From the NCBI GenBank assembly GCA_964609495.1, contig CAZSTA010000078.1, positions 1 through 15,093 on the forward strand: a DNA stretch of 15,093 nucleotides. The letters run 5' to 3'. The position numbers were made by a program, and so were the translations under genes. This stretch comes from an uncultured bacterium. GTDB taxonomy: Bacteria > CAZSTA01. Positions 1 to 15,093 of this stretch are shown piece by piece (position 1 is the first letter of the stretch; the number at the start of each line of letters is the position of its first letter). The notes beneath the pieces are model-generated. The model made no database searches and was not told where the DNA came from. It saw nothing but the letters and a program-made list of their open reading frames with translations.

Positions 1-157
1 AGAAACTTCCCCTCGGTACTTTGCAGGATATATAATATGATATAATATTAACATTCTATCGTGTAATTTTACAATAATATTCACTCATATATTTATCATA
101 CCACACAACAATCACAAAGGAACTCTTTTGATCAAAGGTATAATTTTTGCTTACTAT
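1..157 (+). repeat. Left copy of a direct repeat flanking the gvp cluster; the right copy is at 14081-14213. Positions 1-55 are identical to 14081-14135, then a 2-nt indel, a ~40-nt copy-1-specific insert, and ~85% identity over 106-157 versus 14161-14213.
   Basis: Direct visual alignment of the two ends of the window. The shared core is agaaacttcccctcggtactttgcaggatatataatatgatataatattaacatt. The window starts at the repeat, so it may extend further upstream. Confidence 0.85.
20..46 (+). promoter_or_regulatory. Promoter-like core inside the flank repeat. It has an extended -10 TGATATAAT at 38-46, a weak -35-like TTGCAG at 21-26 with a 14-nt spacer, and a second TATAAT at 138-143 next to the near-palindrome cttttgatcaaagg at 124-137. 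The TA-rich stretch could alternatively be read as an archaeal TATA box.
   Basis: Motif reading only: TGnTATAAT is the extended -10 consensus of sigma70 promoters. The motif lies upstream of the HTH_17 gene and gvpA. Confidence 0.4.
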
Positions 158-213
158 AGTCGTAGATGCGAGGAAGTGTGTAGTTTGTTGTATTTGGGGA
201 TGAGGAGGCGAGT

Positions 214-417
214 GTGATTAGTAAGGTTGTTTTAACACCCCGGGTTATTGCGGAATACTGCCAGGTAAGTAAGAGCGCAGTTTTAAAGTGGATCAAAGAT
301 AAGTGGTCATTATCGTATTGATGAGGAGAAATTTAGGGACTTCCTTAAGAAATATAATATGCCTATTAAGGAAGAATTTTTTGAACATAAATCTAACCAG
401 AAAGGGGGTGAAGAATA
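214..417 (+). pseudogene. Small MerR-superfamily HTH_17 (excisionase/AlpA-like) DNA-binding gene interrupted by a +1 frameshift near 302-306. Its stop codon (415-417) directly abuts the gvpA start.
   Basis: Frame 1 from GTG 214, with GGAGG SD at 205-209, reads VISKVVLTPRVIAEYCQVSKSAVLKWIKDKWSLSY*. Frame 2 from 302 reads [38 protein letters not shown]. Removing one nt around 304 yields a 68-aa HTH_17-like protein (..LKWIKDKGHYRIDEEKFRDFL..). This is either a true frameshift or a sequencing indel. Confidence 0.55.
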
Positions 418-2913: not shown

Positions 2914-3138
2914 TATTCGCTCATATTGGAGTAGCGTGCTTAGCTAAAGATGTCTTTATTTCATAATCACCCTCCCCTAAACCCCTCCCATCGAGGGAGG
3001 GGAAAATGGGAAGACAGTTCTATCTGGATGTCCCCTCTCCCCTCAGTGGGAGAGGGATAGGGTGAGGGTGAAAATTATTTCTTTCGCTCATTAGATCAGT
3101 CTAGCGCACCTTATGCAAATATGAGCGTTAATATTAGA
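2911..3138. repeat. A 228-bp MITE/REP-like structured element. Terminal inverted repeats TAATATTCGCTCATATT (2911-2927) and its reverse complement AATATGAGCGTTAATATTA (3118-3136) enclose an inner imperfect inverted repeat (2967-2984 / 3054-3071) and two GC-rich hairpins: CCCCTCCC-atcga-GGGAGGGG (2982-3002) and CCCTCTCCC-ctcagt-GGGAGAGGG (3033-3056).
   Basis: Nested inverted repeats read directly. The GC-rich poly-C/poly-G tracts stand out in an AT-rich intergenic region between ORF-133 and gvpN. A third partial copy of TTCGCTCAT lies at 3084-3092. Confidence 0.5.
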
Positions 3139-4927: not shown

Positions 4928-5013
4928 TGTCAACTTACCCCTACTGATTGTAACACGAAGTATAGACTGAATCAGGAGAGGTTTCCGTGCCTGATTTAAG
5001 AGGAGGTAAATGA

Positions 5014-7194
5014 ATGGCTATGCGGGCAACCAGGGATGATGTAAAAGCATTAAACCTTCGTGTTGCTGAGGCAAAACCTAAAGATGTTGGAAGGGGGATT
5101 ATACGGATAGACCCCCAGGACTTTGAGAAGATAGGGGTAGATGTAGGAGATATTATTCAAATTGAGGGAAAGAGAAGGACCGTAGCTAAGGTTATGCCCG
5201 CTTATCCTGAAGACCGTGGCAAGTCCATTATCCAGATGGATGGAATTTTACGGAGCAATGCCCAGATCTCTCTTGATGAAAAGGTAACTGTTCAAAAGAT
5301 TAGAAGTTCCCCGGCAGATAAGATAGTAATAAGTCCGTTGACTCTGACAAGATTAAGCCGGGAGAGTGACACTAGATATATCGGCACCCTCCTGGATGGA
5401 TTGCCCCTAATAGAGGGGGATATTATTAGAGCCAATCTATTTGGGACTCGTAGTCAGGATTTTACAGTTCTTAGTACTATCCCAAAGGGGGTAGTGCTGA
5501 TTAACCCAGGAACTATAATTGAAGTGAAAAAAAAGGAAGAGATAGAGGCTAAAGGGTCCAAAATTTCTTACGAAGATATTGGGGGGTTAAGTAAAGAATT
5601 ACAGAAGGTTAGAGAAATGATCGAGCTTCCTCTGAAATACCCTGAGATTTTTGAGCGTTTGGGGATAGACCCTCCAAAGGGAGTATTACTCTATGGACCT
5701 CCTGGATGTGGTAAGACGTTAATTGCCCGTGCTGTAGCGAATGAGACCTCGGCCTATTTTACCCATATTACTGGTCCAGAGATTATGGGGAAATATTATG
5801 GTGAGAGTGAGAGCCGACTGAGAATGGTTTTTGCAAAAGCACAAACTAATACACCTGCTATTATATTCATTGATGAAATCGATGCTATTGCCCCCAAAAG
5901 AGAGGAAATGGGAGGAGAAAAACAGGTAGAGAGGAGAGTAGTTGCTCAGCTGCTCTCTCTAATGGACGGATTAGAGTCACGTGGTAATGTAATCGTTATT
6001 GCTGCAACGAATATTCCTAATTCTATCGATCCTGCTTTAAGAAGACCAGGGAGATTTGATAGGGAAATTGAGATCAGTATCCCTGACCAAAGGGGACGCC
6101 TGGAGATTTTGCAGATTCATACCCGTGGTATGCCTCTAGCTCAGGATGTAGATTTAGCTCAGGATATAGATTTAGAAAAGTTATCCCAGATCACCCATGG
6201 TTTTGTTGGTGCTGATTTGGAAGCGTTATGTCGTGAGGCAGCGATGAATGTATTGAGGAGGATAATGCCGGATATTGATTTTCAATGGTGTGGGATTCCC
6301 TATGAGACTCTATTACAGCTCGAAGTAACAATGGCTGATTTTGGAGAGGCTTTAAAGGAAGTAGAACCTTCAGCTATCAGAGAGGTCTTTATTGAGATTC
6401 CAAATGTGAAATGGGAAGATGTAGGGGGTTTGGGATATATAAAGCAAAAGTTAATGGAAGCTGTAGAATGGCCATCTAAATATTCTATTCTATTTGAGAA
6501 GGCAAAGATAAGACATCCGAAGGGAATTCTCTTTTCTGGACCTCCAGGTACAGGTAAAACACTAGTGGCTAAAGCATTGGCTAATGAAAGTGGGGTTAAT
6601 TTTATCTCAGTTAAAGGTCCTGAATTGATGAGCAAATATATAGGGGAATCAGAAAGAGGGGTAAGAGAGGTGTTTAGGAAGGCAAAACAGGCCAGTCCCT
6701 GTATTATCTTCTTCGATGAATTTGAATCGTTGGTCCCTGAGAGGGGGCCCTCCTCGGATTCTCAGGTTACAGAGAGGGTGATTAGTCAATTCCTTACCGA
6801 GCTCGATGGACTGGAAGAACTGAAAGGTGTACTAGTTCTAGCTGCTACTAATAGAAGAGACCTTATTGATCCTGCTATTTTAAGACCTGGAAGGTTTGAT
6901 TTTATTCTGGGATTTCCACTCCCTGATGAAAGCACAAGGGAAGAGATCTTCAAGGTTCATACGAGAGGAAAACCTCTGGCTCCTGATGTTAGTCTAAAAG
7001 GACTAGCTAGGAAGATGGATGATATGTCCGGTGCAGATATAGAAGCCATCTGTCGAGAAGCTTCTATGATAGCAATTAGAGAAGCTATTAGAGATGAATG
7101 TATGGATAATTTTCGGATCTCTCAAAAGTATTTTGATATGGCTATTGAATGGTTGAAGAGGCAGAAAGGAGAAATGGATGTCTTACCAGGGTAG
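5014..7194 (+). CDS. CDC48/VCP-like AAA+ ATPase with a CDC48_N domain and two AAA domains.
   Basis: The N-domain reads [27 protein letters not shown]. Walker A motifs are GPPGCGKT (D1) and GPPGTGKT (D2); Walker B motifs are IIFIDEID and IIFFDEFE. The protein is 726 aa, with SD AGGAGGT 6 nt upstream. The first 9 codons and RBS are shared with gvpJ. Confidence 0.9.
6139..6174 (+). repeat. In-frame 18-nt tandem duplication (gctcaggatGtagattta / gctcaggatAtagattta) encoding [12 protein letters not shown] in the D1-D2 linker of the CDC48-like gene.
   Basis: Seen directly; one mismatch between copies. Confidence 0.8.
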
Positions 7195-8251: not shown

Positions 8252-8274
8252 ATGAAAGTTAAGGAGGTAAATAA

Positions 8275-8652
8275 ATGGCTATGCAGGCAACCAGGGATGG
8301 ATCTTCTACCCTGGTGGATGTAATTGATCGCGTATTGGATAAAGGGCTTGTTATTAATGCTGATATCTGTGTTTCAGTAGCCGGGGTCGAACTTTTAGGG
8401 ATAAAGGTGAGGGCGGCTTTAGCTTCTTTCGAGACGGCAGCCAAGTATGGGTTAGAATTTCCTAGTGGAACAAATTATGAAACAGCTGCCTGGAAAGAGG
8501 TAAAGGTAGCTAAAGAGGAGTGTCCACAATGTGGAAAGAGGGTTCCTGCCGAAGAACTTATGAATGAAGGCTGTCCATGGTGTGGATGGATGAGTGCAAA
8601 GGCAAAGAAAGCTAAGCCTAAGCTAGCCCCTGAAATATCGGTAGAGGGATAG
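8275..8652 (+). CDS. gvpJ: GvpJ/GvpA-family protein with a C-terminal zinc-ribbon extension.
   Basis: N-terminus MAMQATRDGSSTLVDVIDRVLDKGLVINADICVSVAGVELLGIKVRAALASFETAAKYGL is the GvpA/J core. C-terminus CPQCGKRVPAEELMNEGCPWCGW carries four Cys arranged as CxxC...CxxC. Confidence 0.85.
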   Translation: MAMQATRDGSSTLVDVIDRVLDKGLVINADICVSVAGVELLGIKVRAALASFETAAKYGLEFPSGTNYETAAWKEVKVAKEECPQCGKRVPAEELMNEGCPWCGWMSAKAKKAKPKLAPEISVEG

Positions 8653-10265: not shown

Positions 10266-11435
10266 ATGGAAGAGATATTTTATGCTGTGTTGGCTTTACA
10301 TATAGCTGGTAAACCTGTTAATAGAGAGAATATAAAAGCTATCCTTAAAGCTGTAGGGACACCGATCGATGAGAAGGCGCTTGATGCTATGGTACTCTTT
10401 GTTGAGACTTTGGAAGCTGCTCGTAGGGAGAGACAGAGGACTATAGATCCCAGAATCATCAAATTTCTAACAGATGAGCTAGAGCGACAGAAGGTAAAGA
10501 CAGAGCGACTGGAAGCCCTTTTAGATGAACTAACCAAATCTGTTACTCTATCAGAGGCTTATGAGTTTATACCTTCTGAGCGAGATACGGCTGAGGCAGA
10601 AGAAATAACTATTGAAGAAACTGAAAGTATCCCCCGGTATGAGGGAAGATATGTGTACGGAGTGGCTATGGATGGGAGAGAGGTGAATCTTGGTCCGATA
10701 GGAATAGATGGTAATGAGGTCTATACTATACCTTATAGGGGCCTTTCAGTTATTGTGCATAACTGTCCTCCTGAACCATACCAATCTAACGATGATGAAA
10801 TAGTAAAAAACTGGATAAGAACCCATCAGAATGTCCTTGATGTGGCAAAGGAACAATTCGGTACTATTATACCTATGGGCTTTGATATCATACTACAACC
10901 TGATGATGCTACTTCTCCCGATCAAGTTGTAAGAGATTGGCTTAAGGAAGATTATGATAGGCTCTTGACTGTGATGGAAAAGATAGAGGGTAGGGATGAG
11001 TACGGAGTACAGATTTTCTATGATCCAAAGGTGATAGGTGAGCTTATTGCCAAAAATAATGGGGAGCTCGAAAAATTAAAGGAGGAAATAGCTACCAAAT
11101 CGCCAGGGCTTGCCTATATGTATAAACAGAAGATGGAAAAGCTAATAAAGGAAGAAATGGAAAGGCTTGCTGAAGAATGGTTTAGAGATTTCTATAGTAG
11201 GATTAAAAGGCATTGTGATGATATTGTTATAGAGAAAACTAAAAAAGTTGAGAAGGATAAGATAATGCTAATTAATCCCTCCTGTCTTGTAGTCAAAGAG
11301 AATGTTGAGAGCTTAGGTGAAGAGCTAGAAAAGATCAATAGTATAGAAGGATTCTCTGTCCGTTTTACCGGTCCATGGCCTCCATACAGCTTTGTCTCCA
11401 AGCCAACGATAACAACCTCTAATATAGGAGGATAA
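10266..11435 (+). CDS. gvpL: GvpL/GvpF-family protein with an N-terminal domain (~60 aa) resembling the ribosomal stalk P1/P2 (L12e) dimerisation domain. ATG 10260 is an alternative start.
   Basis: The GvpF/L core is RYVYGVAMDG..VYTIPYRGLSVIVHN...NVLDVAKEQFGTIIPMGFDII. The N-terminus MEEIFYAVLALHIAGKPVNRENIKAILKAVGTPIDEKALDAMVLFVETLEAA aligns by eye with archaeal P1, (M)EYIYAALLLHSAGKEI.EENIKAVLEAAG..VDE.R.KALVAAL. The AGGGA SD sits 5 nt before ATG 10266. Confidence 0.8.
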   Translation: MEEIFYAVLALHIAGKPVNRENIKAILKAVGTPIDEKALDAMVLFVETLEAARRERQRTIDPRIIKFLTDELERQKVKTERLEALLDELTKSVTLSEAYEFIPSERDTAEAEEITIEETESIPRYEGRYVYGVAMDGREVNLGPIGIDGNEVYTIPYRGLSVIVHNCPPEPYQSNDDEIVKNWIRTHQNVLDVAKEQFGTIIPMGFDIILQPDDATSPDQVVRDWLKEDYDRLLTVMEKIEGRDEYGVQIFYDPKVIGELIAKNNGELEKLKEEIATKSPGLAYMYKQKMEKLIKEEMERLAEEWFRDFYSRIKRHCDDIVIEKTKKVEKDKIMLINPSCLVVKENVESLGEELEKINSIEGFSVRFTGPWPPYSFVSKPTITTSNIGG

Positions 11436-11525
11436 AATTGATGCTACATAATTGTCAAGGGACTGGAAAAGTCAGCCGTTCCCATAAGCTAATCTCTGGT
11501 ATCTGTGCGGAAGGATAGATAAATA

Positions 11526-12617
11526 ATGGAACCTACTAGAGATACACATGCTACATTAGTAGACCTCTTGGATAGAATTCTAGATAAAGGCTTAATACTT
11601 AATGCGGATCTAATTATCCATATAGCTGGCATCCCTCTTTTGGGAGTTAACCTAAAGGCTTGCCTTGCTGGAATGGAAACGATGCTAAAGTATGGTATCT
11701 GGCAAGACTGGGATGAGGCACAGAGGGTGATTGCCACTGAAGAAGAGAGGAAGAAGAAAAAAGTTCCCTTAGCTCCACAGGAAGATGTCTTCCTAAAGAT
11801 ATTTGCCTCCCTGTGGTACAGTAAAGGTATCTATCATACCCGGAGACCGGGGCATCTATACATCACCGATAGAAGGATATTCTTATTTAGAAAGGAACCA
11901 GCTGAAGTACTATTTCATTGTATGTATAAGGAGATAAAAGGAATCAGTACTGAAAGAAAGGCAAATATTACTGGCAAAGAGACGGATTATCTCTATCTAT
12001 GGCTTAACTCAGGAGAGATCGTTAAGTTGCATCCGACAGATGCTCAGCTTGTTAGAGAGACAATAGAAGAAAGAATGAAATTACTGGGGCTAGAGTTGAA
12101 GAAAGATATCCCCCTTCCTATACTCGATGAGGTAGCAATAAAGTTTTTATCTGAGGAAGAAGAAATTATCCATTCGGGAAAGATATCTTATCTAGTGGCT
12201 GAATCAAGACCGGGGGGTATTACCACCGAGGTATGGAAGCCGGGACATTTATATCTGACTGATAGGAGGTTAGTCTGGTGGTACGATTTCGATGGCAGGA
12301 TTGCTTCTGAATTACCTCTTGAGAAAATTCTGGGAGTTGAAATAAAAAGAAAAGATTTGGGTGATATGTTAAAGAATAAATCTGTTTTAGATTTGGCTTA
12401 TAAGAATGGTAGTAATAGAATTGCCTCTTTCTCTAGTAGTACGGAGGGACTAAATGAGTGGGAAAAAATAATAGGTGAGGTTATGATAGAATACGACAAG
12501 ACAGAAGAGTGCCCCAGGTGTGGCAGAAGGGCACCTATAGATAAGCTGCTTAAAGAAGGCTGTTCAATCTGTGGCTGGGTAAGCCCCAGGCTTAGAAAAA
12601 AGGAGATAGAAGCTTAA
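11526..12617 (+). CDS. Fusion protein combining an N-terminal GvpA/J/M-family domain, two GRAM/PH-like repeats and a C-terminal zinc ribbon.
   Basis: N-terminus [57 protein letters not shown] is the GvpA-family core. The two repeats are ..RRPGHLYITDRRIFLF.. and ..WKPGHLYLTDRRLVWWY.., matching the GRAM/bPH 'G.LYLT..RL.F' signature. C-terminus is CPRCGRRAPIDKLLKEGCSICGW. Confidence 0.8.
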   Translation: MEPTRDTHATLVDLLDRILDKGLILNADLIIHIAGIPLLGVNLKACLAGMETMLKYGIWQDWDEAQRVIATEEERKKKKVPLAPQEDVFLKIFASLWYSKGIYHTRRPGHLYITDRRIFLFRKEPAEVLFHCMYKEIKGISTERKANITGKETDYLYLWLNSGEIVKLHPTDAQLVRETIEERMKLLGLELKKDIPLPILDEVAIKFLSEEEEIIHSGKISYLVAESRPGGITTEVWKPGHLYLTDRRLVWWYDFDGRIASELPLEKILGVEIKRKDLGDMLKNKSVLDLAYKNGSNRIASFSSSTEGLNEWEKIIGEVMIEYDKTEECPRCGRRAPIDKLLKEGCSICGWVSPRLRKKEIEA

Positions 12618-12875
12618 ATGGATATTGATGAAATAATTAGAAAAACCCAAGAAACTTTTACTAGACTTACCAAGATACCTATCGATGGAATTACTGGTAT
12701 ATCAAAGACTGACCAGGGGTGGATGGTAGCACTAGAAGCACTGGAGAGAAGAGCCATACCTGATACTATGGATATACTAGGACTTTATGAGGTTCGCCTC
12801 GACAATGATGGGAATCTTCTTAATTTTGAGAGAAAGAAACTCCGTAAACGCGGTGAAACAGAGGGGGGAGAGTAG
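12618..12875 (+). CDS. gvpO: Gas vesicle protein GvpO
   Basis: DQGWMVALEALERRAIPDTMDILGLYEVRLDNDGNLLNFERKKLRKRG matches the GvpO signature (GW.v.vE..E....PDT.d.L..Y.v.lD.dG.L....R...Y.RG). ATG overlaps the upstream stop (TAAATG). Confidence 0.8.
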   Translation: MDIDEIIRKTQETFTRLTKIPIDGITGISKTDQGWMVALEALERRAIPDTMDILGLYEVRLDNDGNLLNFERKKLRKRGETEGGE

Positions 12876-12876
12876 A

Positions 12877-13110
12877 ATGAGTGCATGGAATAAATGTCCC
12901 AGTTGTGGAATCACTGTCAGTGGGATTGCCGATTACTGTCCTAATTGTGGAGAACCCTGGACTATAGAATGTCAAAATTGCGGAATAACTTGGCGATTCT
13001 GGGAAAATTATAAATTTTGTCCCAATTGTGGAGCTAAGGTAGAAAAGCGTGGTGTCACCAGAGGAAAGCAGAAGGTAGGACCAGGGGTTGGAAAACCAAA
13101 GGTTATTTAA
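12877..13110 (+). CDS. Double zinc-ribbon protein with four CxxCG pairs.
   Basis: MSAWNKCPSCG..YCPNCGEPWTIECQNCG..FCPNCGAKV. ATG 12877 is one nt after the gvpO stop, with a G-rich SD. The ORF-track start at 12787 would overlap gvpO and is unlikely. Confidence 0.6.
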   Translation: MSAWNKCPSCGITVSGIADYCPNCGEPWTIECQNCGITWRFWENYKFCPNCGAKVEKRGVTRGKQKVGPGVGKPKVI

Positions 13111-13147
13111 CCCAAGCTCCGCATTTTAGGAACGCATCACAATTTGT

Positions 13148-13416
13148 GGCTCTTTGAGGGAAAGTGTGAAGGGAAGTTAAGCACATTCGAGGAGGATATG
13201 TTGTCGGAAATTATCAAAGTTTCGATATCCGTATCCTCTCTGTTTGATGAGCTTAATCTCGTTATTGATCCCCTCGGCTAAACCATTGTTTATCCTCTCT
13301 ATAAAGTAATTCAAACTCTCCTCCCACCAAGAGCGAAGAGTATTTACGAATTTGAATAAAGTTCTTACCGCTTGCTCTACCTTATGACACCAAGAGGAGA
13401 AAAATCTCTCTTCGCT
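13148..13416 (-). mobile_element. Remnant of an ISL3-family insertion sequence: the 3' (C-terminal) transposase fragment on the minus strand (13177-13416) plus its terminal inverted repeat reading GGCTCTTTGAGGGAAAGTGTGAAGG inward from 13148. The other end is absent.
   Basis: Minus-strand translation gives SWWEESLNYFIERINNGLAEGINNEIKLIKQRGYGYRNFDNFRQHILLECA*. I recognise the 'EG.NNKIK.IKR.AYGYRNF.NFR.RIL' tail as ISL3 (DDE_Tnp_ISL3) transposases. Upstream frames are broken by stops. The GGCTCTT terminus matches my recollection of ISL3 inverted repeats. No reverse-complement inverted-repeat copy is found at higher coordinates. Confidence 0.6.
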
Positions 13417-13480
13417 TTATCCCATCCCTTGATCTTCTCAAAGATAGGGCGAAATTCCTCCTTCAAGAAATGAGTTCTAA

Positions 13481-13693
13481 GCAAATAGATTTAGTTCTTC
13501 ATATATTCCTAAGGAGGAGATAACCGATCTAGCGGGAGATATGTCCTTAGAAGAGAGATTAGAATTATCTGAGAAAAAGATAATCGAGGGCGCTCTAAAA
13601 GAGGTGGGAGGAAATCAAAGCCGGGCTGCCAAGATGTTAGGTATATCCCGATATAAATTGCGTTATCGAATGCAGAAGTATGATCTACTATAG
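13481..13693 (+). pseudogene. C-terminal fragment (Fis-type HTH_8) of a sigma-54-dependent NtrC-family transcriptional activator.
   Basis: ..MSLEERLELSEKKIIEGALKEVGGNQSRAAKMLGISRYKLRYRMQKYDLL* matches the C-terminal HTH of NtrC/NifA-type activators. No AAA sigma-54 domain is found upstream in any frame. ATG 13541 has a GGGAG motif immediately upstream, so a 50-aa stand-alone product is possible but unlikely. Confidence 0.55.
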
Positions 13694-13759
13694 TAGGTTG
13701 TGTGTTTTTACACTATATGTGGGAAATCACACACATATTATAATCCATTACGTGAAGTT

Positions 13760-13786
13760 CCCCGAGGCTTGCCTCGGGGTTTTCTT
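13760..13786 (+). terminator. Rho-independent terminator: a 9-bp perfect GC stem CCCCGAGGC-tt-GCCTCGGGG followed by TTTTCTT.
   Basis: Read directly; the T-run follows on the plus strand. A second hairpin ATATGTG..CACATAT lies at 13715-13738. Confidence 0.75.
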
Positions 13787-14080
13787 GGCATGATTATATA
13801 ACCTAGCTATCCTCTCGATATGTTTCCCTAATGGTGCAGGAGAGTATCATCTATTACCATAAAACCTTCCTTAGTGTTCACTCCCCTTCTTGCTAAAGAA
13901 GACATCTCTGAAGAAAGATTGCTTTTGTTACCACTACTGAGGAAAATTCTACTATGGATATCACTTCTTACTTCCTCTTCCTCACATCTCCCCCATCTGT
14001 GTTAATTTCCATAAATGTATTTAATATCACTTTTCTATTTCAAGGCATACATCTTTAAGTGATAGTTATATTGATTTTGC

Positions 14081-14213
14081 AGAAACTTCCCCTCGGTACT
14101 TTGCAGGATATATAATATGATATAATATTAACATTTTCTATCGTGTTGCCTTTGCAATATAACAATCGCAGAGGAACTCTTTTGATTAAAGGTATGATAT
14201 TTGCTCTTTATAG
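14081..14213 (+). repeat. Right copy of the flank direct repeat. It carries the same extended -10 TGATATAAT at 14118-14126.
   Basis: See the 1-157 entry. Confidence 0.85.
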
Positions 14214-14335
14214 ATGTTAGACGACTCAAGTACTACCTAAGTGCATATATCTACTATTTTAACTTCTGATATCTAAAAGCAGGGAATATTTCTCCCCTTA
14301 AAGTTAGGATATAGTGTTAAGGAGGGGCAGATGTA

Positions 14336-14467
14336 ATGGTTCCAGAGAAGCTTTATAAGATCGGAGAAGTTGTGAGGTACAGTAGTTTTTACAGGCGAGT
14401 CATTCATAATTATACCCAGATCGGGTTGATCAGATCATCTTTATCAGCCCAGCGGGATAAATTTTAG
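14336..14467 (+). CDS. Tiny (43 aa) MerR-superfamily/HTH_17-like DNA-binding ORF immediately downstream of the right repeat copy; possibly truncated.
   Basis: MVPEKLYKIGEVVRYSSFYRRVIHNYTQIGLIRSSLSAQRDKF. The IGE(V/L)..(pause)..R.I..Y..IG pattern resembles MerR/Xis-type HTH. AGGAGGGG SD lies at 14320-14327. Its arrangement after the repeat mirrors the 214-417 gene after the left repeat. Confidence 0.4.
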   Translation: MVPEKLYKIGEVVRYSSFYRRVIHNYTQIGLIRSSLSAQRDKF

Positions 14468-14472
14468 ATGAG

Positions 14473-14673
14473 ATGCTCGCTTTTTTTGATCTTTGTGCTG
14501 TGGACTACATAATCTTTCCTTTTCGCAGTAAGGGGGTGTTAGATCGAGTTAGAGCTGCTTTGCGATCCAGCCGACTGATGAGAGAATTACGAAGACGCAA
14601 TCAGGAACTTGTTATTTTGAAGGGAATATCTGATATAGCTAATCGATCTTCAAGTTTAGGTGAGCTATTATAG
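14473..14673 (+). pseudogene. Short ORF whose C-terminal half resembles the coiled-coil leader into a GAF domain (ELRRRNQELVILKGISDIANRSSSLGELL*). Probable truncated N-terminus of a GAF-containing sensor or sigma-54 activator.
   Basis: Pattern recognition only. The motif 'L..EIS.AL.SSLDL.ELL' is common at GAF-domain starts in NifA/FhlA-type regulators and histidine kinases. The frame stops after 66 aa and downstream frames are broken. Confidence 0.25.
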
Positions 14674-15015
14674 AGATCACATTGCGATTCTGCACTAAAC
14701 CCTAATAATGAATTAGTGTTGGAAATAAATATTTTCAAGTTCGCTTATAGTGAGTGCTTTCTACTTTCAGATCTTTGCATTTAGCTACGGAGAGAGCTTC
14801 TAAAAGGCAGTTATAATGTGATTCAATATTTGGAAATCTTGAAGTAAATGGGGGAGCATAAAGATTAAGGAATCGCAGTCCAATTATATCAGTCAGTTCA
14901 GTCATCCAAATTGTAAGAAGTTGAATCGCTATTTTTCTCTCTATAAGCTAATCATAGACCTATTGTTTCCAAGATTATGTGACATCTATAAATATAAGGA
15001 AAGGGGGGAAAGAAA

Positions 15016-15093
15016 ATGGCAAATGCCCAGATTCTAGCTGTTGAAGATGAGAAAATCGTAGCTGAGAACATACGAGACAGGTTGAAAAGTTTG
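15016..15093 (+). CDS. Response-regulator receiver domain at its 5' end, truncated by the window edge.
   Basis: MANAQILAVEDEKIVAENIRDRLKSL shows the typical 'ILVVEDE' receiver start. AAGGGGGG SD lies 7 nt upstream. Confidence 0.6.
   Translation, partial: MANAQILAVEDEKIVAENIRDRLKSL

Follow-up and report, generated by a model that had tools for sequence, protein, structure and literature searches.

Insertion sequences (IS) make gas-vesicle (gvp) loci unstable, as with the ISH elements in the plasmid gvp regions of Halobacterium and the IS insertions in cyanobacterial gvp genes. The locus described here has in common with these cases a mobile element beside a gvp cluster and a rearrangement, whereas here the element is dead and lies outside the coding region, as a stub that leaves every gvp gene uninterrupted. 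For the ISL3 family, inverted repeats could be defined in four full-length cyanobacterial plasmid copies (from Anabaena, Gloeothece, Calothrix and Oscillatoria), the nearest annotated ones compared, which are 1.24–1.41 kb long and 38–43% identical to the remnant over the matched stretch. ISArsp7, an ISL3 element of Arthrobacter, was compared through its published repeats only (GGCTCTTCGCGG..., with an 8-bp direct repeat; PMC6305408). A described regulator of relevance is GvrA of Serratia sp. ATCC 39006, a sigma-54 NtrC-type gas-vesicle regulator that lies inside the gas-vesicle locus, where gvpA1 is driven from a −24/−12 promoter (PMC4982088). The present locus resembles that system in having a gene for a sigma-54 enhancer-binding protein (EBP) beside the gvp cluster. 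Unlike GvrA, it has 65 C-terminal codons of such a gene and no −24/−12 promoter, and the related clusters are free of EBPs; a regulatory link between this EBP and the cluster is putative.

The window, by which we mean the whole 15,093-bp contig analysed here, carries a gvp cluster on the + strand that runs from gvpA (418–624) through gvpO (12618–12875) and is followed by a Zn-ribbon gene. All recognisable gvp genes through the Zn-ribbon gene are intact. The 1.9 kb to the right (13148–15015) hold no intact gene. This flank begins with two gene fragments, which are very probably best explained as a dead ISL3 stub that was joined to the 3′ end of an EBP gene by illegitimate recombination. The features are listed below; L037, the closest relative, is a 2,289-bp JGI contig (Ga0315545_1048015), and R is a repeat that occurs on both sides of the cluster.

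1–159, + strand: repeat R, copy A, at the contig start; after ...TATAG it enters the HTH unit upstream of gvpA
12877–13110, + strand: Zn-ribbon gene, intact, 77 aa (relatives mostly 79–91 aa), the last gene common to related gvp clusters
13148–13176, − strand: right-hand terminal inverted-repeat region, GGCTCTTTGAGGGAAAGTGTGAAGGGAAG when read outside-in on the + strand
13177–13416, − strand: open frame of the transposase C-terminus, PF01610; best of 1.84 billion representatives 56% identical
13400–13404, − strand: A5/T5 homopolymer, the −1 frame shift site of the transposase, read from both frames
13403–13478, − strand: upstream transposase segment in the second frame, RTHFLKEEFRPIFEKIKGWDKAKRDF, matched by PF01610, NF033550 and P0128; the open frame reaches 13490
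13479–13496, no strand: fusion junction of the IS interior with the interior of the EBP gene; transposase homology ends at or before 13478 and L037 homology starts at 13496–13501
13496–13693, + strand: 3′ remnant of the EBP gene, 65 codons plus stop, comprising a linker and HTH_8
13760–13787, + strand: intrinsic-terminator-like hairpin and T run 3′ of the EBP remnant, kept in L037
14081–14213, + strand: repeat R, copy B, starting 388 bp past the stop codon of the EBP stub; it enters the MerR-like fragment as in L037
14336–14467, + strand: MerR-like N-terminal fragment, broken in L037 too
14473–14670, + strand: fragment of a response-regulator receiver domain, C-terminal part

The earlier note on this DNA had read a minus-strand ORF ending at 13177 as the C-terminus of an ISL3 transposase, and this assignment was confirmed by matches to PF01610, NF033550 and the protein P0128. 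The region 13177–13416 consists of a 79-codon open frame (13180–13416) and a stop codon (13177–13179), and the encoded C-terminus reads ...NGLAEGINNEIKLIKQRGYGYRNFDNFRQHILLECA before the stop. The frame matched positions 168–240 of the 240 positions of the Pfam family DDE_Tnp_ISL3 with an E-value of 2.4e-21 and 77 bits (cut-off 23 bits), and transposase homology within it runs from 13180 to about 13400. Beyond the −1 frameshift in the A5 run, the homology goes on to about 13478 in another minus-strand frame, which is open from 13380 to 13490 and has the translation IYLLRTHFLKEEFRPIFEKIKGWDKAKRDF. Joining of the two frames extended the Pfam match to positions 146–240 of 240 (E = 3.2e-23) and gave a match to positions 276–369 of 370 of the NCBIfam model transpos_ISL3 (NF033550; E = 4.5e-23). 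The score of 81.9 bits lies below the 180-bit whole-protein cut-off of this model because the sequence is a fragment. In BLASTP, the frame-repaired peptide (99–106 aa) aligned without a break to residues 320–419 of P0128 with 51% identity (E = 2e-30). P0128 is a full-length ISL3 transposase of 433 aa that carries the domains Zn_ribbon_ISL3, HTH_Tnp_ISL3 and DDE_Tnp_ISL3. The stub also corresponds to residues 303–397 of the 406-aa ISL3 transposase of Anabaena cylindrica pANACY.04, the second-frame part accounting for residues 303–326. Matches in an exhaustive HMMER search were to the extreme C-terminus of proteins of 400–435 aa.

The stub keeps about 99 transposase codons, about one quarter of the gene, with one reading-frame lesion in about 100 codons. 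A tblastn search with the full-length transposase on the 15,093-bp contig gave a single match area (13189–13484) and no other transposase piece, in agreement with the earlier statement that the N-terminal three quarters are missing. The Zn ribbon (PF14690), HTH_Tnp_ISL3 (PF13542) and the first two catalytic aspartates are absent from the whole contig, and the first approximately 145 of the 240 positions of the DDE domain are missing from the stub. The limits of the remnant had previously been drawn at 13148 and 13416; the left end held, but the right limit had to be moved outward, as homology continues past the frameshift. On the minus strand, 13148 to about 13480/13493 corresponds to the last (3′) quarter of an ISL3-family element, of which some 330–345 bp survive. 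As every feature needed for activity is absent, we class the stub as the relic of an ISL3 element rather than as an insertion sequence. Without the DNA-binding N-terminus, most of the DDE domain and the second end, neither production of a transposase nor mobilisation is possible.

The sequence GGCTCTTTGAGGG begins at 13148, 29 bp past the transposase stop. ISL3 inverted repeats commonly begin with GG(C/T)TCTT. As GGCTCTT is no rarity in the window, with five copies observed and 3.1 expected, and is not significant alone, the probable element end is assigned by position and orientation. A GGCTCTT end about 30 bp from the stop had been proposed earlier, and it fits the ends of the full-length relatives, that is, the four cyanobacterial copies and ISArsp7. 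The termini of the four copies are variants of the same motif (GGCTCTT, GGTTCTT, GGCTCTC) and lie 13–30 bp past the stop, as follows.

Anabaena ISL3 copy: terminus GGCTCTTGC, 16 bp past the stop
Gloeothece ISL3 copy: terminus GGTTCTT, 30 bp past the stop
Oscillatoria ISL3 copy: terminus GGCTCTC, 14 bp past the stop
Calothrix ISL3 copy: terminus GGCTCT(C/T)CCG, 13 bp past the stop

The Anabaena copy, from plasmid pANACY.04 of Anabaena cylindrica PCC 7122 (transposase WP_015212319.1), is 1413 bp long and has 26-bp inverted repeats, GGCTCTTGC... In an alignment with full-length elements, the sequence to compare with their right-hand repeat would be GGCTCTTTGAGGGAAAG. In common with the four copies, the stub has the C-terminal part of DDE_Tnp_ISL3 including the EGINNxxK region, a terminal GG(C/T)TCT(T/C) on the correct strand and at a comparable distance from the stop, and an AT-rich flank. 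On the other hand, it retains about 25% of such an element, is without the Zn ribbon, the HTH and about 145 DDE positions, and lacks the second repeat, so that direct repeats are unreadable. In a simple scan of more distant Firmicute ISL3 copies, the GGCTCTT end was not seen. The second inverted repeat is indeed missing, as had been claimed: a scan of the window that allowed up to three mismatches in 17 nt gave no partner, and inverted repeats were not detected either. The flanking 8-mer CAATTTGT (13140–13147) occurs once in the window, with no second copy. Around the insertion site (13100–13180) there is no hairpin or terminator, and the fold is no better than that of shuffled sequence.

Full-length copies of the element were sought in protein sets, GTDB genomes and JGI metagenomes, and none was found. 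A word-indexed search of 5.8 billion proteins returned four matches, all of them fragments and at most 51% identical. Five loci were obtained from the GTDB genomes, with at most 49% identity over short stretches and no full-length or close copy among them. The JGI metagenomes yielded 20 loci, mostly fragments with at most about 50% identity over useful lengths, and again no close copy. The exhaustive HMMER search of 1.84 billion representatives gave a best match of 56% identity and no near-identical element. As no close copy was found, the inverted repeat is comparable only with relatives that are 38–43% identical. These searches indicate that the stub descends from an unsampled ISL3 lineage and is not assignable to a named IS. 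The closest metagenomic transposase relatives (L006, L007, L018–L020 and P0001–P0004) are themselves mostly short C-terminal fragments or frameshifted; L006 and L007 terminate with GGTTCTCCTCAG... 25 bp past the stop. Two of the contigs L006, L007 and L018–L020 share the JGI dataset Ga0210051 with L028, a related gvp cluster.

The second fragment contains a complete HTH_8 domain (PF02954, positions 2–42 of 42, E = 1.3e-15) in 13541–13693. HTH_8 alone is no proof of a sigma-54 activator, and the 70-codon frame 13481–13690 was therefore used as a protein query. This search returned P0125 with 91% identity, a protein encoded at the extreme end of L037. P0125 reads LRNVIERAFILCDGDEIKDRNLPLAIPSSKYIPKGEEMIDLAGDMS... 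up to HTH_8, that is, the AAA+ lid motif LRNVIERAFIL, then a linker and then the HTH, and it extends upstream of the homology with the fragment as LRNVIERAFILCDGDEIKDRNLPLAI. In its lid region AAA_lid_14 was matched weakly (E = 0.0015), and its NCBIfam matches were to the C-termini of the AtoC, PrdR and ZraR models (positions 365–455 of 461 for AtoC). This continuation of P0125 into the AAA+ lid motif bears out the earlier view that the right-hand neighbour of the IS remnant is a fragment of a sigma-54 activator. Sigma54_activat (PF00158, with the GAFTGA loop) is absent from the window; judging from L037 and P0125, it was presumably once present. By its homology, 13496–13693 is a genuine EBP 3′ end, a fragment and not a functional EBP.

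From window position 13496–13501 onwards, the DNA of L037 and of the window is about 93–95% identical outside indels, and nothing is alignable leftward. At the junction 13479–13496 neither side is at a transposon end, and possible microhomology is limited to at most 5 nt (TCTTC). Because no IS end is involved, the joint stems from illegitimate recombination rather than from transposition. The data show what each fragment is, where the two meet and that the contig has none of the missing parts.

On the other side, the IS end lies 37 bp past the stop of the Zn-ribbon gene. The remnant is thus located between the gvp cluster and the sigma-54 activator fragment, as the earlier note had said, and the last gene of the cluster is the Zn-ribbon gene. 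A truncated Zn-ribbon gene, considered on account of a tblastn alignment through its stop, was rejected, as the gene length matches that of relatives. The site had also been called an island boundary. Synteny of the gvp genes with related clusters does stop at the IS end, but there is no sharp change in GC content: it drops gradually from about 0.41 to about 0.36 across the right flank, with no step at the IS. We use the term only descriptively, for the end of conserved gvp synteny. A conserved gene of 210–230 aa without a Pfam family, with which gvp clusters of this kind normally end, follows the Zn-ribbon gene in four of five relatives (or gvpO, after which its position was counted where no Zn-ribbon gene was called) and lies slightly further downstream in the fifth. 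The five copies (L028 11672–12355, L029 11567–12259, L033 11554–12219, L034 10218–10910 and L035 10497–11129) are 37–72% identical to each other. The gene is fully absent from the window, where the gap between the Zn-ribbon gene and the IS is 13111–13147. Remnants of the downstream genes of related clusters (the 210–230 aa gene, a 63-aa gene and a GerE-type response regulator) were not found anywhere in the window. In exact-protein look-ups, the GvpO, the GvpJ-like protein and the GvpA of the window were without a record.

Several further observations concern the interior of the cluster. In relatives, the second GvpL/F gene is surrounded by one or two ArsA/ParA-type ATPase genes and a 108-aa gene, with an extra GvpG-like gene in some; the window has a mere 90-bp gap (11435–11526) compared with the genes at L028 7302–10001, L029 7971–8777 and L044 612–2963. 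A 38-nt direct repeat (5001–5038 and 8262–8299, 95% identical) comprises a ribosome-binding site and the first eight codons (MAMRATRD) and starts both a CDC48-like AAA ATPase gene and a Gas_vesicle-domain gene. The gap before gvpN contains, at 2966–3072, a MITE/REP-like palindrome of about 107 bp (TCACCCTCCCCTA...TAGGGTGAGGGTGA) with two internal G/C hairpins. This element occurs twice in L037 (981–1082 and 1479–1585), one copy being an insertion relative to the window.

Further right in the decayed flank, the MerR-like and receiver fragments are joined head to tail, and their join at 14473 is a breakpoint with respect to L037. The flank also holds a 70-codon minus-strand frame to which no family was assigned. 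A six-frame Pfam scan of the flank gave HTH_8 and a weak MerR match and nothing else, and an Rfam scan gave no match. An apparently new response-regulator gene (MANAQILAVEDEK...) begins at 15016 and runs off the contig (15016–15093).

Gene order in L037 is EBP, a spacer of about 400 bp, repeat R, the MerR-like fragment, about 530 bp and an HTH unit. The corresponding unit of the window is a small HTH_17/excisionase-like gene upstream of gvpA (214–417, ORF 214–321). The HTH unit of L037 is 95% identical to window 140–369, directly upstream of gvpA, and an exact-protein look-up of the 35-aa HTH ORF returned L037 alone. In this closest relative the HTH unit, whose counterpart in the window precedes gvpA, thus has the EBP gene on its upstream side; L037 ends before gvpA, however, and its own HTH unit only presumably precedes a gvp cluster. 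The HTH_17/excisionase-like gene is apparently frameshifted or internally deleted (...AVLKWIKDKWSLSY up to a stop, with GHYRIDEEKFRDFLKKYNMP... following in the next frame); this lesion recurs in L037, where the unit is tandemly duplicated (1896–2003 and 2096–2203).

Two direct copies of R, spaced by 14,080 bp, stand on either side of the gvp cluster. Nucleotides 1–55 are an exact copy of 14081–14135, and the rest of R is about 85% identical, with an indel of 26–29 nt. Internally, copy A is built like the R of L037, and at the shared ...TATAG it changes over to the promoter of the HTH unit; both copies are derivable from a single L037-type R. The repeat carries sigma-70-like motifs (TTGCAGGATATATAATATGATATAAT). 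Assuming a SPAdes-type assembler, the exact 55-mer looks like a branch vertex of a de Bruijn graph with k = 55, and under the same assumption the spacer found before copy B would also lie to the left of nucleotide 1. In the vertex reading, this spacer, on the right of the EBP stub, is the only path into the vertex. Owing to this exact repeat at the contig start, the arrangement of EBP 3′ end, spacer and R is probably found on both sides of the cluster, and an intact copy of the EBP gene may be located immediately to the left of the contig.

For each of the two fragments and for their joint, a more trivial explanation was considered. A fortuitous ISL3-like ORF beside a fortuitous GGCTCTT would gain something from the five copies of the heptamer in the window, but the motif stands on the correct strand and at the correct distance from the stop, and the Pfam, NCBIfam and BLASTP E-values (down to 2e-30 against a full-length ISL3 transposase) refute chance resemblance, to which we give practically no weight. 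That the HTH_8 ORF at 13541–13693 is a free-standing small Fis-like gene, and not an activator fragment, is very improbable. An ATG at 13541 does open a 50-codon ORF with the complete domain, and NCBIfam Fis models match the homologous region of P0125 weakly. However, the 91% homology to P0125 begins 15 codons 5′ of this ATG and in L037 extends unbroken through LRNVIERAFIL to the contig end and beyond, NCBIfam gives its best matches to the C-termini of the EBPs AtoC, PrdR and ZraR, and there is no well-spaced ribosome-binding site 5′ of 13541. An artefact of assembly or strain mixing, which would have created the IS–EBP junction or the order of gvp cluster, IS stub, EBP stub and R, also seems improbable, if somewhat less so. 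It would be in keeping with a contig that is an entire metagenome assembly record of 15,093 bp and opens with an exact 55-mer recurring internally, in a repeat-rich region where close relatives differ by several breakpoints. A de Bruijn join, however, needs a shared k-mer. The sequences flanking 13479–13496 each occur once in the contig, and no more than 5 nt are common to the IS side and the L037 EBP sequence, which makes an artefact at the joint unlikely; path-switching is possible only within 13496–14135, where it would alter what follows the EBP stub and not the IS–EBP joint.

Unlike the fragment identities and the joint position, the history of the locus is something that we infer. An ISL3 element very probably inserted 37 bp 3′ of the Zn-ribbon gene, with its right end at 13148 and its transposase on the minus strand; of this element, the terminal repeat, the 29-bp spacer and about 99 codons with one frameshift remain, and at the inner edge (13479–13496) illegitimate recombination joined the inside of the IS to the final 65 codons of the EBP gene. 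How this came about could be explained in two ways. One deletion could have run from the IS interior into an EBP gene downstream, taking three quarters of the element and most of that gene; this is the model of the earlier note and is possible, though well below an even chance. This would fit a flank that is a chain of truncated genes (IS, EBP, MerR-like, response regulator), where deletions clearly occur, and would explain the missing 210–230 aa gene; on the other hand, it needs an EBP gene downstream of the cluster, which is seen in no relative. Alternatively, a single unequal exchange would have duplicated a segment reaching from within an EBP gene, natively upstream of the cluster, to within the IS, the IS–EBP fusion being the duplication joint and an intact EBP gene remaining upstream of the contig start; we place this just short of an even chance. 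It would account for the order in L037, where the EBP gene comes before the HTH unit found here ahead of gvpA, for the two direct R copies derivable from one L037-type R, including their exact 55 nt, and for the fact that an EBP is downstream in none of the related gvp loci fetched. Against it, the R copies differ after nucleotide 55, as do the sequences that come after the copies, so that extra deletions are needed, the k = 55 argument presupposes a SPAdes-type assembler, and L037 stops before gvpA. We lean towards the unequal exchange; some other rearrangement, or an assembly or strain artefact, holds a minor share of the probability. The earlier note went further and took insertion followed by deletion as the cause of the loss of a regulator. 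Taken strictly, this would be a sigma-54 activator of the gvp genes, encoded just downstream of the cluster and destroyed by the ISL3 insertion and one deletion. In its favour, a single deletion running rightward from inside the IS into a + strand EBP gene would give the observed geometry, the gene expected after the Zn-ribbon gene is likewise gone, and GvrA provides a precedent. However, the cluster, including the region upstream of gvpA, is without a −24/−12 promoter (TGGCAC-N5-TTGCW): at up to two mismatches none was found in the intergenic regions of the window or in L037, and the sole two-mismatch match in the cluster lies inside the Zn-ribbon gene on the wrong strand. Upstream of gvpA there are sigma-70-like motifs, no EBP adjoins any related gvp locus fetched, the EBP of L037 is upstream of the HTH unit, and a second copy of EBP 3′ end, spacer and R is probable left of the contig. 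Destruction of a gvp regulator therefore appears doubtful. The geometry stood, the loss of a regulator was not established, and such a loss should not be inferred from this contig.

The preferred reading, a dead ISL3 stub joined to an EBP 3′ end, means for annotation that 13148–13693 should be entered not as genes but as two fragments of pseudogenes, one from the 3′ end of an ISL3 transposase gene and one from that of an EBP gene. IS relics beside gvp clusters and truncated regulators are ordinary, and the sole new point is the unsampled parent lineage; the importance beyond annotation is little. A further consequence of the repeats would concern the organism itself. It is conceivable, though unlikely, that the IS–EBP joint arose by duplication and that the gvp cluster forms a unit of about 14.1 kb with EBP 3′ end, spacer and R repeated directly at either side over at least 640 bp each, so that homologous recombination could amplify the unit or excise it precisely. 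Comparable instability is familiar from other gas-vesicle organisms. If true, this reading of the flanking repeats would suggest recombinational loss or amplification of the gas-vesicle genes, and the repeats would give this uncultured lineage a simple means to turn buoyancy on or off or to set it by copy number.
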